Sequence record: PX880102.1
DNA from: a phage
Length of the DNA: 64,000 bases
Strand: one strand, 5' to 3'
Below the pieces are notes generated by a model. That model was given only the letters and a program-made list of their open reading frames with translations. It was not told the DNA's origin and searched no databases. A program made the translations under genes and the position numbers. Shown here piece by piece: positions 1-64,000 of the stretch; positions within the stretch are counted from its first letter, which is position 1, and each line of letters begins with the position of its first letter.

Positions 1-2314
<2,314 letters not shown>

Positions 2315-2342
2315 TATTAAAGCATATTAAAGAGGATTAAAA

Positions 2343-4322
2343 ATGACTTTATTATCTCCGGGCATTGAGCTCAAAGAAACTACGGTTCAAAGCACCGTGG
2401 TTAATAACTCTACTGGTACAGCAGCTTTGGCCGGTAAATTCCAGTGGGGTCCTGCTTTTCAAATTAAACAGGTTACGAATGAAGTAGATTTAGTTAATAC
2501 TTTTGGTCAACCTACAGCTGAAACTGCTGACTATTTTATGTCTGCAATGAATTTCTTACAATACGGAAATGATTTGCGAGTTGTGCGTGCTGTCGATAGA
2601 GATACCGCTAAAAACTCATCTCCGATTGCCGGTAATATTGAATACACTATTTCTACCCCAGGTAGTAACTACGCGGTTGGAGATAAAATCACGGTTAAGT
2701 ATGTTTCAGAAGATGTTGAAACAGAATGTAAAGTTACCGAAGTAGATGCTGATGGAAAAATTAAGAAAATTAATATTCCTACCGCAAAAATTATCGCTAA
2801 AGCGAAAGAAGTAGGCGAATATCCAGCATTAGGTTCTAACTGGACCGCGGAAATTTCTTCGTCTTCCTCTGGTTTAGCTGCAGTAATAACTCTTGGAAAA
2901 ATTATTACTGATTCTGGTATTTTATTAGCTGAAATTGAAAATGCTGAAGCTGCTATGACAGCCGTTGACTTTCAAGCAAATCTCGAAAAATATGGAATTC
3001 CAGGAGTAGTAGCTCTTTATCCAGGCGAGTTGGGCGATAAAATCGAAATTGAAATCGTATCTAAAGCTGACTACGCAAAAGGTGCTTCTGCATTACTTCC
3101 AATTTATCCAGGTGGCGGAACACGCGCATCTACTGCCAAAGCAGTGTTTGGATATGGACCACAAACTGATTCACAATACGCTATCATAGTTCGTCGCAAT
3201 GATGCTATTGTTCAAAGCGTTGTTCTTTCGACAAAGCGAGGTGAAAAAGATATTTACGATAGTAACATCTATATTGACGACTTTTTCGCAAAAGGTGGTT
3301 CAGAATATATTTTCGCAACTGCACAAAACTGGCCAGAAGGCTTCTCTGGAATTTTAACTCTGTCTGGTGGATTATCATCAAATGCTGAAGTAACAGCAGG
3401 AGATTTGATGGAAGCTTGGGACTTCTTTGCTGACCGTGAATCTGTTGATGTTCAGTTGTTTATTGCGGGTTCTTGTGCCGGTGAATCTTTAGAAACAGCA
3501 TCTACTGTCCAAAAACACGTCGTTTCAATTGGGGATGCTCGCCAAGACTGCTTAGTATTATGCTCGCCACCGCGTGAAACTGTAGTTGGAATTCCTGTAA
3601 CTCGTGCTGTTGATAACTTAGTCAATTGGAGAACTGCAGCAGGTTCATACACTGATAATAACTTTAATATCAGTTCAACCTACGCAGCAATTGATGGTAA
3701 CTACAAATATCAGTATGACAAATACAATGATGTCAATCGCTGGGTTCCATTAGCAGCTGATATTGCCGGTTTATGTGCAAGAACCGATAACGTTTCTCAG
3801 ACTTGGATGTCTCCAGCTGGTTATAATCGCGGCCAGATTCTTAACGTTATTAAACTTGCTATTGAAACTCGCCAAGCTCAGCGCGACCGTTTATACCAAG
3901 AAGCTATCAACCCAGTGACTGGTACAGGTGGTGATGGTTACGTATTATATGGTGATAAAACAGCTACTTCTGTTCCTTCTCCATTTGATCGTATTAACGT
4001 TCGTCGTCTGTTTAATATGTTGAAAACGAATATCGGACGTAGTTCAAAATATCGTTTGTTCGAATTAAACAACGCGTTTACTCGTTCATCATTCCGCACA
4101 GAAACTGCCCAATACTTACAGGGAATTAAAGCTCTCGGTGGAATTTATGAATATCGTGTAGTTTGCGATACAACAAATAACACTCCGTCAGTAATTGATA
4201 GAAATGAGTTTGTTGCAACATTCTACATCCAACCTGCGCGCAGTATAAATTATATTACTTTGAATTTCGTCGCAACGGCTACTGGTGCAGATTTCGATGA
4301 GTTAACTGGTCTTGCAGGTTAA
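2343..4322 (+). CDS. 18: Tail sheath protein gp18 (659 aa)
   Basis: 659 aa as in T4 gp18; late promoter TATAAATA 30 bp upstream; synteny. Confidence 0.95.
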   Translation: MTLLSPGIELKETTVQSTVVNNSTGTAALAGKFQWGPAFQIKQVTNEVDLVNTFGQPTAETADYFMSAMNFLQYGNDLRVVRAVDRDTAKNSSPIAGNIEYTISTPGSNYAVGDKITVKYVSEDVETECKVTEVDADGKIKKINIPTAKIIAKAKEVGEYPALGSNWTAEISSSSSGLAAVITLGKIITDSGILLAEIENAEAAMTAVDFQANLEKYGIPGVVALYPGELGDKIEIEIVSKADYAKGASALLPIYPGGGTRASTAKAVFGYGPQTDSQYAIIVRRNDAIVQSVVLSTKRGEKDIYDSNIYIDDFFAKGGSEYIFATAQNWPEGFSGILTLSGGLSSNAEVTAGDLMEAWDFFADRESVDVQLFIAGSCAGESLETASTVQKHVVSIGDARQDCLVLCSPPRETVVGIPVTRAVDNLVNWRTAAGSYTDNNFNISSTYAAIDGNYKYQYDKYNDVNRWVPLAADIAGLCARTDNVSQTWMSPAGYNRGQILNVIKLAIETRQAQRDRLYQEAINPVTGTGGDGYVLYGDKTATSVPSPFDRINVRRLFNMLKTNIGRSSKYRLFELNNAFTRSSFRTETAQYLQGIKALGGIYEYRVVCDTTNNTPSVIDRNEFVATFYIQPARSINYITLNFVATATGADFDELTGLAG

Positions 4323-4357
4323 TACGGTGCATTCTAAAGGCCTGTTTCGGCAGGCCA

Positions 4358-4365
4358 TATAAATA
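4358..4365 (+). promoter_or_regulatory. Late promoter TATAAATA, distal of two upstream of gene 19
   Basis: Exact TATAAATA directly after GGCCTG/CAGGCC hairpin. Confidence 0.6.
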
Positions 4366-4416
4366 CACTATATCCTTAATTCTTTAATTCTATATGCCCT
4401 AGGTTAAACATAGGGA

Positions 4417-60058: not shown

Positions 60059-63000
60059 ATGGCTACTTTAAAACAAATACAATTTAAAAGAAGCAAAACT
60101 GCAGGAGCACGTCCTGCCGCTTCAGTATTAGCCGAAGGTGAATTGGCTATAAACTTAAAAGACCGTGTACTTTTTACTAAAGATGACCAAGGAAATATTA
60201 TTGATCTGGGTTTTGCTAAAGGCGGTAGTATTGACGGGAATGTTATTCATACAGGCAATTATAACCAAACTGGCGATTATACTTTAAATGGTGTCTTCAC
60301 TCAGACTGGTAATTTTAATTTAACTGGTATTGCTCGAGTAACTCGCGATATTATTGCCGCTGGGCAGATTATGACTGAAGGCGGAGAACTTATTACAAAA
60401 AGTTCAGGTACAGCGCATGTTCGTTTTTTCGATAACAATAGTCGCGAACGCGGAATCATTTATGCCCCGGCTAATGATGGTTTAACTACACAAGTACTTA
60501 ATATCAGGGTTCAAGACTACGCCGCTGGTAGCGAAAGCACTTATGCATTTTCAGGCAGTGGACTATTTACTTCACCTGAAGTATCAGCATGGAAATCTAT
60601 TTCGTCTCCACAAATTCTAACCAACAAAGTCATTACTAATAATAAATCTACGGGTGATTATGACATCTATTCGATGGCAGACAATGTTCCATTGTCTGAA
60701 AGCACTACTGCTATTAATCATCTTCGTGTCATGCGTAATGCCGTTGGTTCTAGTATTTTCCATGAAGTTAAAGATAATGATGGAATAACTTGGTATGCAG
60801 GTGATGGACTTGACACCTATCTTTGGTCATTTACTTGGAGCGGCGGAATTAAATCGAGTCACTCAATTTCTATTGGTTTAACACCTGGTAATAAAGATTA
60901 TTCAATATTAGGACCATCTAGTATTGCTTTAGGAGATAATGATACTGGATTTAAATGGCATCAAGATGGATATTATTTTAGCGTTAATAATGGAACAAAA
61001 ACGTTTTTATTTAGTCCTAGCGAAACAACTAGCCTAAGAAAATTTGTAGCTGGATATTCTACTAACGGAACCGATTTAACTACTCCTCCAACTGAAAACT
61101 ATGCATTAGCCACTGTTGTTACTTACCATGATAATAACGCATACGGCGACGGTCAAACTCTTTTAGGATATTATCAAGGCGGTAACTATCATCATTATTT
61201 CCGCGGTAAAGGTACTACAAACATTAATACTCACGGCGGTTTGTTAGTTACTCCTGGTAATATTGACGTTATTGGTGGTTCTGTTAATATCGATGGTAGA
61301 AATAATAATTCAATTTTAATGTTTAAAGGCTATACCATGGGTCAAAGCTCCGTTGATAACATGTATATAGCTGTTTGGGGAAATACTTTTACTAATCCAA
61401 GTGAAGGCACCCGTAAAAATGTCATGGAAATTTCTGATGATATTGGATGGATGCATTATATTCAACGAACAACTGCAGGTAAAGTCGAATCGGTTCTAAA
61501 CGGCACCCAGATTGTTAATGAAAACTTGACCGTAGTAAAAAATGCTACATTTGATGGTACAATCAGCGCAGCAGGTGAAATTTCATCTGGGGCTGTGAAT
61601 GCGCTTCGTATTTGGAACGCAGATTATGGAGCTATTTTTAGACGTTCAGAAGGCAGTCTTCATATTATTCCAACTGCTTACGGTGAAGGTAAATATGGCG
61701 ATATCGGTCCACTTCGCCCGTTTAGTATGGCTTTAGATACCGGTAAAGTTACTATTCCAGATTTACAATCAAGTTACAATACGTTTGCTGCTAACGGCTA
61801 TATTAAATTTGTTGGTCATGGAGCGGGTGCCGGCGGTTATGACATTCAATATGCTCAAGCGGCTCCTATTTTCCAGGAAATTGATGATGATGCTGTAAGC
61901 AAATATTATCCTATTGTTAAACAGAAGTTTTTAAATGGTAAAGCCGTTTGGTCTTTAGGTACTGAAATTAATTCGGGTACATTCGTTATTCATCATCTGA
62001 AAGAAGATGGTTCACAAGGCCATACGTCTCGTTTTAATCAAGACGGTACTGTTAACTTCCCAGATAACGTTTCTGTCGGCGGCGGTGAAGCTACTATTGC
62101 TCGCAATGGTAATATCTGGTCTGATATCTGGAAAACGTTTACTTTAGCAGGCGACGTAACTAATATTCGCGATGCAATAGCTACTCGTGTTGCTAAAGAA
62201 GGTGATACGATGACCGGTAGGTTGACTTTATCTGCTGGAAATGATGCCCTTGTTTTAACTGCAGGCACGGGCGCTTCATCGCACATCCGTAGTGATGTAG
62301 GTGGTACAAATAATTGGTTTATAGGCAAAGGCGGCGGCGACAATGGTCTAAGTTTTTACAGTTACATTACACAAGGCGGTGTGAACATAACAAATAACGG
62401 CGAAATAGCGCTTTCTCCTCAAGGACAAGGAGCGTTTAATTTTAATAGAGACCGCCTTCATATAAACGGTACACAATGGACCGCACACCAGGCTGGCGAT
62501 TGGGGAAATCAATGGCGCCAGGAAGCTCCTGTATTTGTGGATTTTGGTAATGTCGGTAATGATAGTTATTATCCTATTATTAAAGGAAAATCTGGTATTA
62601 CTAATGAAGGGTATATATCTGGTGTAGATTTTGGTATGCGACGCATTCCTAATAACTGGGCACAAGGTATTATTCGTGTAGGTAATCAGGAAAACGGTTC
62701 CGACCCACAAGCTATCTTCGAATTCCACCATAATGGAAACATGTGCGTTCCTGACATGGTTAAAGCTGGAGTAAGAATATCAGCCGGTGGAGGTGACCCT
62801 GTATGGACAGGCGCATGTGTTGTTATTGGTGATAATGACACCGGATTAGTTCATGGTGGTGACGGCCGAATCAATATGGTTGCCAATGGTATACATATTG
62901 CAAACTGGGGAGCAGGCTATCAATCTCATCCTGGGCTTTGGGATTCAACCGGTGCTTTTTGGACAGAAGTTGGAAGAGCTATCGTTTCTCATGGGCATCT

Positions 63001-63388
63001 CGTTCAGGCAAATGATAGTTATTCAACGTTTGTCCGTGATGTTTATGTCCGTTCTGATATTCGTGTTAAAAAAGACCTTGTTAAATTTGAAAATGCTTCT
63101 GAGAAGCTTTCAAAAATTAATGGTTACACTTATATGCAGAAGCGAGGCCTAGATGAAGAAGGTAATCAAAAATGGGAACCTAATGCCGGTTTAATTGCCC
63201 AAGAAGTTCAAGCTATTTTACCTGAATTAGTTGAAGGCGATCAGGATAGTGAAGCTTTACTTCGTTTGAACTATAACGGTGTAATTGGTTTAAATACAGC
63301 TGCAATCAATGAGCATACTGCAGAAATTGCAGAACTTAAATCAGAAATTGAAGAACTTAAAGCATTAGTTAAATCATTGTTAAAATAA
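60059..63388 (+). CDS. 37: Long tail fibre distal subunit gp37 (1109 aa) with C-terminal self-cleaving chaperone-like domain
   Basis: Position after 36; C-terminal SDIRVKK motif and coiled-coil tail; followed by gene 38. Confidence 0.9.
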
Positions 63389-63393
63389 TAAGA

Positions 63394-63407
63394 GGGGCTT
63401 CGGCCCC
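63394..63407 (+). terminator. Intercistronic GC hairpin between genes 37 and 38 (attenuator or RNA stability element)
   Basis: GGGGC-TTCG-GCCCC immediately followed by GGAGG Shine-Dalgarno of gene 38. Confidence 0.5.
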
Positions 63408-63419
63408 TTGGAGGTTTAT

Positions 63420-64000
63420 ATGGCAGTAACAGGACCGTGGGTAGGATCGTCTGCAGTAGTTAATACAGGACAAAATTGGATGGGTGGTGCCGCGCAGAGA
63501 TTGAGAATGGGAATTCCGTTTTGGATGAGTAATATGATAGGTAGATCTGTTGAAATAATTCACACGCTTGGAGCAGACCATAACTTCAATGGTCAATGGT
63601 TCCGAGATAGATGTTTTGAGGCAGGTAGTGCACCTATAGTGTTTAATATCACTGGAGATTTAGTATCATATTCTAAAGATGTTCCTTTATTCTTCATGTA
63701 TGGAGATACACCGAATGAATATGTTCAGTTGAATATACACGGCGTAACGATGTATGGACGTGGCGGTAATGGCGGTAGCAATAGTCCTGGTTCAGCTGGA
63801 GGTCATTGTATTCAAAACGATATTGGTGGGAGACTAAGAATTAATAATGGCGGAGCTATTGCTGGAGGTGGCGGCGGTGGCGGTGGCGGATATTATTCTC
63901 CTTTTTCACAAATGAGATTGACTTTTGGAGGTGGCGGCGGGCGTCCGTTTGGCGCACCGGGCGGATCTATTGATATGCAATCAGGAGCAACTGCTGGTAC
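63420..64000 (+). CDS. 38: gp38, T2-type receptor-recognising adhesin (5' part; runs off window end)
   Basis: N-terminus [13 protein letters not shown]... and polyglycine blocks typical of T2-family gp38. Confidence 0.85.

Follow-up and report, generated by a model that had tools for sequence, protein, structure and literature searches.

A C-terminal Peptidase_S74 intramolecular chaperone domain in the distal long tail fibre subunit gp37 of a phage related to vB_EcoM_G10400, and its predicted self-removal

Known fibre proteins ending in a chaperone domain

In Salmonella phage S16, the last 113 residues of the distal tail fibre subunit gp37 form an intramolecular chaperone, which is autocleaved between the two serines of DLNVS^SDRRIKK (the caret marks the cleaved bond), as stated in the part of PMC7917993 that summarises Dunne et al. 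2018. The same summary describes the autocleaved end of gp37, with its DVYIR / DLNVS strand, as the docking surface of gp38. For three Yersinia tequatroviruses it has been predicted that gp37 is cleaved after DVYIR in DVYIR^SDGRLKI, that the chaperone is released and that gp38 docks (PMC7917993).

The locus described here lies at the end of a 64,000-nucleotide stretch of phage DNA (sequence record PX880102.1), which we call the window. Like S16 gp37, the gp37 encoded in it is a distal subunit ending in a Peptidase_S74 (S74) domain; these domains have about 111-113 amino acids, and the two chaperones are 55% identical. The cleavage motif of S16 aligns residue for residue with the segment DVYVR^SDIRVKK here, in which the caret marks the predicted bond. 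In both phages the next gene codes for gp38, in which a Gp38_N attachment domain is combined with an adhesin domain rich in polyglycine. In contrast, the scissile bond is preceded by Ser in S16 and by Arg here, the tip here has an 11-residue insertion compared to that of S16, the rest of gp37 also differs, and the host is Salmonella for S16 but E. coli for this phage. Comparing the Yersinia site with the one here, we found four aligned differences (I/V, G/I, L/V and I/K).

In T2 and T6, gp37 also undergoes C-terminal cleavage, after which gp38 caps it, according to PMC3157838, whose passage on this subject names no protease. The first report on the processing of T2 gp37 was that of Drexler, Riede and Henning in 1986, which PMC3157838 cites. 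T2 gp37, like gp37 here, carries a C-terminal PF13884 domain (E 1.8e-16), which starts in NVYIR/SDIRLK at Ser1243, and the gp38 adhesin gene comes next. The T2 chaperone domain has 99 amino acids, compared to 111 here, and the C-terminal regions are about 29% identical. The preliminary description of this DNA, made from the sequence alone, had linked the domain to the removal of roughly 120 C-terminal residues from T2 gp37 before gp38 binds. The order of events, that is, C-terminal cleavage followed by capping with gp38, agrees with PMC3157838, but the figure of about 120 is only roughly consistent, because the S74 domain of T2 has 99 amino acids.

We also considered whether the window could be phage T2 itself. 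This was rejected: T2 gp37 (AP018813) has 1341 amino acids and is about 29-33% identical to gp37 here. The window is closest to Escherichia phage vB_EcoM_G10400 (Tequatrovirus), with 99.7% identity over 62000-64000 and 97% over 40000-64000. The authors of the G10400 study predicted an S16-like gp37 tip carrying gp38 (PMC6563267). In the G10400 record (MK327937.1), gp37 (G10400_00260, 1060-4389) has the product name 'hypothetical protein', and its note says only 'Tail fiber protein gp37 C terminal'. The assignment of the S74 domain improves this GenBank annotation.

More distant relatives of the domain have been solved structurally. The chaperones of K1F endosialidase, T5 pb1 and the GA-1/phi29 appendage (3GW6, 4UW8 and 3GUD) are founding members of MEROPS S74 / PF13884. 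In structural alignments they are 12-20% identical to the domain here, with K1F and T5 at 12-15%. The 'tentacle' hairpins of K1F and T5 are longer and their domains larger (133 amino acids in T5), and their clients, a triple beta-helix and a bullet domain, differ from the T-even fibre tip that is the client here. Since the similarity to K1F and T5 is low, mechanistic detail was carried over to gp37 mainly through S16. A further relative is the ICA domain of MyRF (7DC3), whose host protein is not a fibre but a eukaryotic membrane-bound transcription factor. The cleavage of MyRF frees its N-terminal part for entry into the nucleus.

In T5 pb1, catalysis is carried out by Ser1264 and Lys1269. Cleavage takes place between Thr1263 and Ser1264, the serine departs with the chaperone, and the S1264A mutant expressed in E. 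coli shows no processing (PMC4690869). The T5 and K1F chaperones are each built around a central trimeric coiled coil (PMC4690869). In T5 the client domain of a neighbouring chain is proposed to supply the folding-sensor and oxyanion residues Arg1250 and Asp1239, and an upstream sensor Arg and Asp have likewise been proposed for K1F.

The feature described below is thus already known: its family is curated, S16 is processed at the aligned site, the Yersinia site is nearly identical, and G10400 has been called S16-like. It holds no surprise for specialists, because the module and the site have been published for S16, for the fPS phages and, by analogy, for T2/T6. Our finding confirms a correct annotation and opens no new question.

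Gene 37 and the domain at its end

Gene 37 and the parts of its terminal domain have the following positions.

60059..63388, plus strand: gene 37, distal subunit of the long tail fibre, 1109 amino acids plus stop (phrog_1699, synteny)
63053..63385, plus strand: whole intramolecular chaperone domain, residues 999-1109, 111 amino acids, predicted to be released after trimerisation
63053..63232, plus strand: Peptidase_S74 core, residues 999-1058 (PF13884)
63272..63382, plus strand: C-terminal helix, residues 1072-1108, predicted trimeric coiled coil (model, fragment residues 124-160; heptads)

The product of gene 37 matched phrog_1699, 'long tail fiber protein distal subunit', from end to end (PHROGs; 1344.7 bits, E-value printed as 0). 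The gene order g34-g35-g36-g37-g38, in which three ORFs precede g37, is syntenic with G10400 and T2. Codon 999 (TCT, Ser) starts at 63053, residues 999-1005 read S-D-I-R-V-K-K, and 63053..63388 consists of 111 codons and the TAA stop. That is, SDIRVKK opens the last 111 residues of gp37, as had been claimed, and on these codon counts and residue positions the preliminary description and its coordinates are therefore correct. The S74 domain occupies the last 111 of the 1109 residues, at the extreme C-terminus of the distal fibre subunit.

The preliminary description had compared this heptapeptide with the Ser-Asp-x-Arg-x-Lys signature at which the chaperone domains of phage fibres and tailspikes autocleave, and had proposed a profile search for the domain. 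The search found PF13884 (Peptidase_S74, 'chaperone of endosialidase'; Pfam) at residues 999-1058 of gp37. The match had an E-value of 1.1e-12 and a score of 48.4 bits, above the gathering score of 22. It covered positions 1-57 of the 58 positions of the profile, and Ser999 corresponds to profile position 1. When the 161-residue C-terminal fragment was used, the values were E 4.3e-14 and 53 bits.

The last 161 residues matched 28 proteins in a large protein collection, with identities from 94% down to about 32%, and each of them carries a precomputed PF13884 assignment. Some are collagen-like tail-fibre fragments (PF01391 + PF13884), which take their names from records of E. coli and Salmonella enterica and are apparently derived from prophages. 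A conserved core behind the motif had also been claimed, and the 29-sequence alignment revealed it: G1022, G1044-L-I-A-Q1048, P1055, E1056 and Y1072 are invariant. Asp1000 is kept in all 28 homologues. When the 111 residues were used in a tblastn search, 1219 phage records were found to carry the module, including T-even-like, T5-like, Klebsiella, Vibrio, cyanophage and other records; in Escherichia phage LF82-4 it is 100% identical. SDIRVK is also present in all six close relatives from viral contigs, although these add no evidence of conservation because they are too similar.

The structure of the last 161 residues was predicted as a single chain with AlphaFold2, built on the 29-sequence alignment. 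The model combines short helices with a beta-hairpin (1023-1031 and 1037-1044) and ends in a long helix. The mean pLDDT of ten-residue blocks exceeded 90 across residues 1009-1108 or so, except for one block of 76. In contrast, the pLDDT was below 50 up to residue 993, with a mean of about 53 over residues 989-998; such low values at the tip are as expected, because an intertwined trimeric fibre was modelled as a single chain. The coiled-coil tail of the preliminary description corresponds to the single long helix 1072-1108, in which the pLDDT was mostly above 90 and 8 of the 11 a/d positions in the best register are L, I, V or M. In a Foldseek search against the PDB, the MyRF ICA domain (7dc3, E 1e-6) ranked first, followed by the chaperone of K1F endosialidase (3gw6), and the model matches the fold of all four solved domains of the S74 family. 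The Pfam match, the conservation of Ser999 and Lys1004, the fold matches and the homology to S16 gp37 agree that gp37 carries a C-terminal Peptidase_S74 intramolecular chaperone from Ser999 onward.

Some smaller observations concern the gene as a whole. Overlapping ORFs at 62853..63152 (plus strand) and 63369..63596 (minus strand) were rejected, because nothing supports them and they fall within genes that are themselves well supported. The Gp34_trimer domain (PF21446), which is the trimerisation domain of the proximal subunit gp34, matched residues 450-556 of gp37 (61406-61726) with an E-value of 6.7e-8, above the cut-off. This stretch fits with a sharing of domains among fibre genes. In Pfam, a gp37_trimer match at residues 738-781 was sub-threshold only.

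Gene 38 and the stretch before it

Two features follow gene 37 in the window.

63392..63409, plus strand: hairpin GAGGGGC-UUCG-GCCCCUU between g37 and g38 (RNA fold)
63420..64000, plus strand: gene 38, 5' part, which leaves the window; T2-type tail-fibre adhesin (Pfam, PDB, phrog_2056)

The gp38 fragment matched Gp38_N (PF21721) with an E-value of 1.1e-21 and GP38 (PF05268) with an E-value of 2.1e-54. It also matched the gp38 of S16 (6F45_D, E 5.5e-43). Judging from these sequences, the g37-g38 pair here is of the T2/S16 arrangement, in which gp38 would be an adhesin on the tip of gp37, and not of the T4 chaperone type. By analogy with the described phages, gp38 would be present on the virion, docked on the processed C-terminus of gp37. 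The fragment is far closer to 9v85, a recent structure of a GFP-gp38 fusion (E 3.3e-68, residues 37-183), than to S16 gp38.

Gene 38 starts at 63420, 32 nt beyond the stop of g37. Two tandem in-frame TAA stops (63386-63391) are followed by the hairpin at 63392-63409, which has a 7-bp G+C-rich stem and a UUCG loop, and the GGAGG ribosome-binding site of g38 (63410-63414) lies directly 3' of it. The 43-nt stretch gave a folding energy of -13.8 kcal/mol with a z value of -1.55. The G10400 record annotates the g37-g38 hairpin as a putative terminator; in the window sequence, there is no T-run 3' of it. Stable C(UUCG)G intercistronic hairpins occur in T4 mRNAs, and the g37-g38 hairpin looks more like these than like a terminator.

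The catalytic pair and the predicted cleavage of gp37

The cleavage site and its surroundings have the following positions.

62810..63052, plus strand: distal tip of the mature fibre, about residues 918-998, ending in DVYVR (6F45_A alignment)
63050..63055, plus strand: predicted scissile bond Arg998/Ser999, codons CGT TCT (aligns with S16 DLNVS^SDRRIKK, GA-1 and MyRF)
63068..63070, plus strand: Lys1004 (Ser+5), predicted general base of a Ser-Lys dyad (conservation, spacing, alignments)

In the 29-sequence alignment, both Ser999 and Lys1004 were found in every one of the 27 homologues covering the site. Position 1005, which holds the second Lys of the motif, is variable (R, K, E or S). Since Lys1004 is present in every spanning homologue while position 1005 varies, Lys1004 is therefore the conserved partner of Ser999. 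The spacing of Ser999 and Lys1004 equals that of Ser1264 and Lys1269 in T5 pb1 (PMC4690869). The alignment profile showed that in 3GUD, the chaperone chain of GA-1, the Ser aligned with Ser999 is the very first residue (SDERHK), and that the Lys of this chain aligns with Lys1004. In the crystallised MyRF sequence (ADLRAKE), which was found in a search of PDB sequences, Ala stands opposite Ser999 and Lys opposite Lys1004; we infer that this Ala is an inactivating substitution made for crystallisation. Upstream of the bond, Asp994 and Arg998 are each kept in 24 of 28 homologues. In the single-chain model, whose pLDDT is below 50 up to residue 993, no counterparts of the sensor Arg and Asp proposed for T5 and K1F could be assigned.

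The tip and the chaperone together matched the S16 gp37 construct (6F45_A) with an E-value of 1.9e-44, and the alignment runs from about residue 918 through the cleavage site. In S16, T5 and K1F the chain is cleaved before the Ser. Thus Arg998 would be the last residue of mature gp37, and Ser999 would be lost together with the chaperone; cleavage of gp37 at Arg998-Ser999 is predicted by analogy with these proteins. Likewise, the tip ending in DVYVR is predicted to be the docking platform for gp38 after the chaperone has departed.

We therefore think that residues 999-1109 of gp37 are very probably an S74 chaperone, which would trimerise, fold the tip, cleave itself off between residues 998 and 999, and leave a DVYVR platform for gp38. 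The identity of the domain, its catalytic residues, its fold and its partnership with gp38 were established from the sequence and the predicted structure. For three further points, namely that gp37 is cleaved, that cleavage requires trimerisation and that gp38 docks, we drew on S16, T5, K1F and T2/T6, and these steps may be pictured as follows. The C-terminal domains of three gp37 chains would associate during synthesis through their coiled-coil helices and beta-hairpins. This association would align the preceding chains in register, so that the trimeric fibre tip could fold. After correct folding of the tip, Lys1004 would activate Ser999 for an attack on the Arg998-Ser999 bond in each chain, and the chaperone trimer would dissociate after the cleavage. 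The mature fibre would then end in DVYVR998, and its new flat tip would serve as the platform for the N-terminal domain of gp38.

It is also conceivable that the S74-type domain stays on the fibre of the virion as a structural cap, and that gp38 binds elsewhere or only transiently. The sequence by itself does not prove cleavage, and in T4, according to PMC3157838, gp38 is a transient chaperone only. However, the catalytic Ser and Lys are intact in gp37, none of the homologues spanning the site lacks them, and the gp38 encoded next to it is of the T2/S16 adhesin type with Gp38_N, not of the T4 chaperone type. Moreover, the summary in PMC7917993 reports that it is the autocleaved end of S16 gp37 on which gp38 docks. 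We therefore consider a retained domain very improbable.

We regard it as just as improbable that a separate phage or host protease removes the C-terminus and that the domain serves only as a folding helper. What speaks for such a protease is that the passage on T2 in PMC3157838 says that gp37 is proteolytically cleaved and names no enzyme. In contrast, the exchange of the equivalent Ser for Ala in T5 pb1 blocks its processing in E. coli (PMC4690869), and because this single change stops the processing, a separate protease is unlikely. Ser999 and the Lys at +5 are conserved in gp37, and the S16 homologue is described as autocleaved in the summary of PMC7917993.

As for the motif, when all 64 kb of the window were translated in six frames, SD.R.K occurred once, at 63053. 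Taken alone, the motif is weak evidence, because by a rough estimate about one chance occurrence is expected in such a window. In contrast, its coincidence with position 1 of the PF13884 match is far beyond chance. Thus the idea that SDIRVKK is a chance match and that the C-terminus is merely a coiled-coil trimerisation tag, although a six-residue pattern with two free positions is expected about once in six frames (roughly estimated) and was found once, is ruled out for practical purposes by the PF13884 profile, the homologues bearing PF13884 and the fold matches.

The predicted end of mature gp37 at Arg998 is of practical use. If the S74 chaperone does fold the tip as we think, expression constructs for recombinant fibres or engineered host-range chimeras derived from this phage must include residues 999-1109 for folding, although these residues are likely lost later.

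The strand x-D-V-x-I/V-R (residues 992-998) was common to T-even gp37 proteins and to the collagen-like (PF01391) fragments. Since it is conserved across T-even and collagen-like fibres, the start of the shared module seems to lie a few residues before the cleavage site. We speculate, as an unlikely reading of these sequences, that the strand and the chaperone may together form a cassette that acts as a portable recombination joint, which would graft a self-removing chaperone and, along with it, a gp38-compatible docking surface onto very different fibres. It is a still weaker possibility that, once released, the trimer of the 111-residue domain serves some other function in the infected cell.

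Finally, a close gp37 homologue in the viral contig IMGVR_UViG_2974741249_000001 (about 1700-1730) is frameshifted within the chaperone domain. Its frame breaks after YTYMQKR, and the part from DEEGNQKW to the end of the domain is in the next frame. The frameshift may stem from misassembly, or the gene may be a natural pseudogene; if the frameshift is real, this homologue would be a natural test of the need for the chaperone domain.
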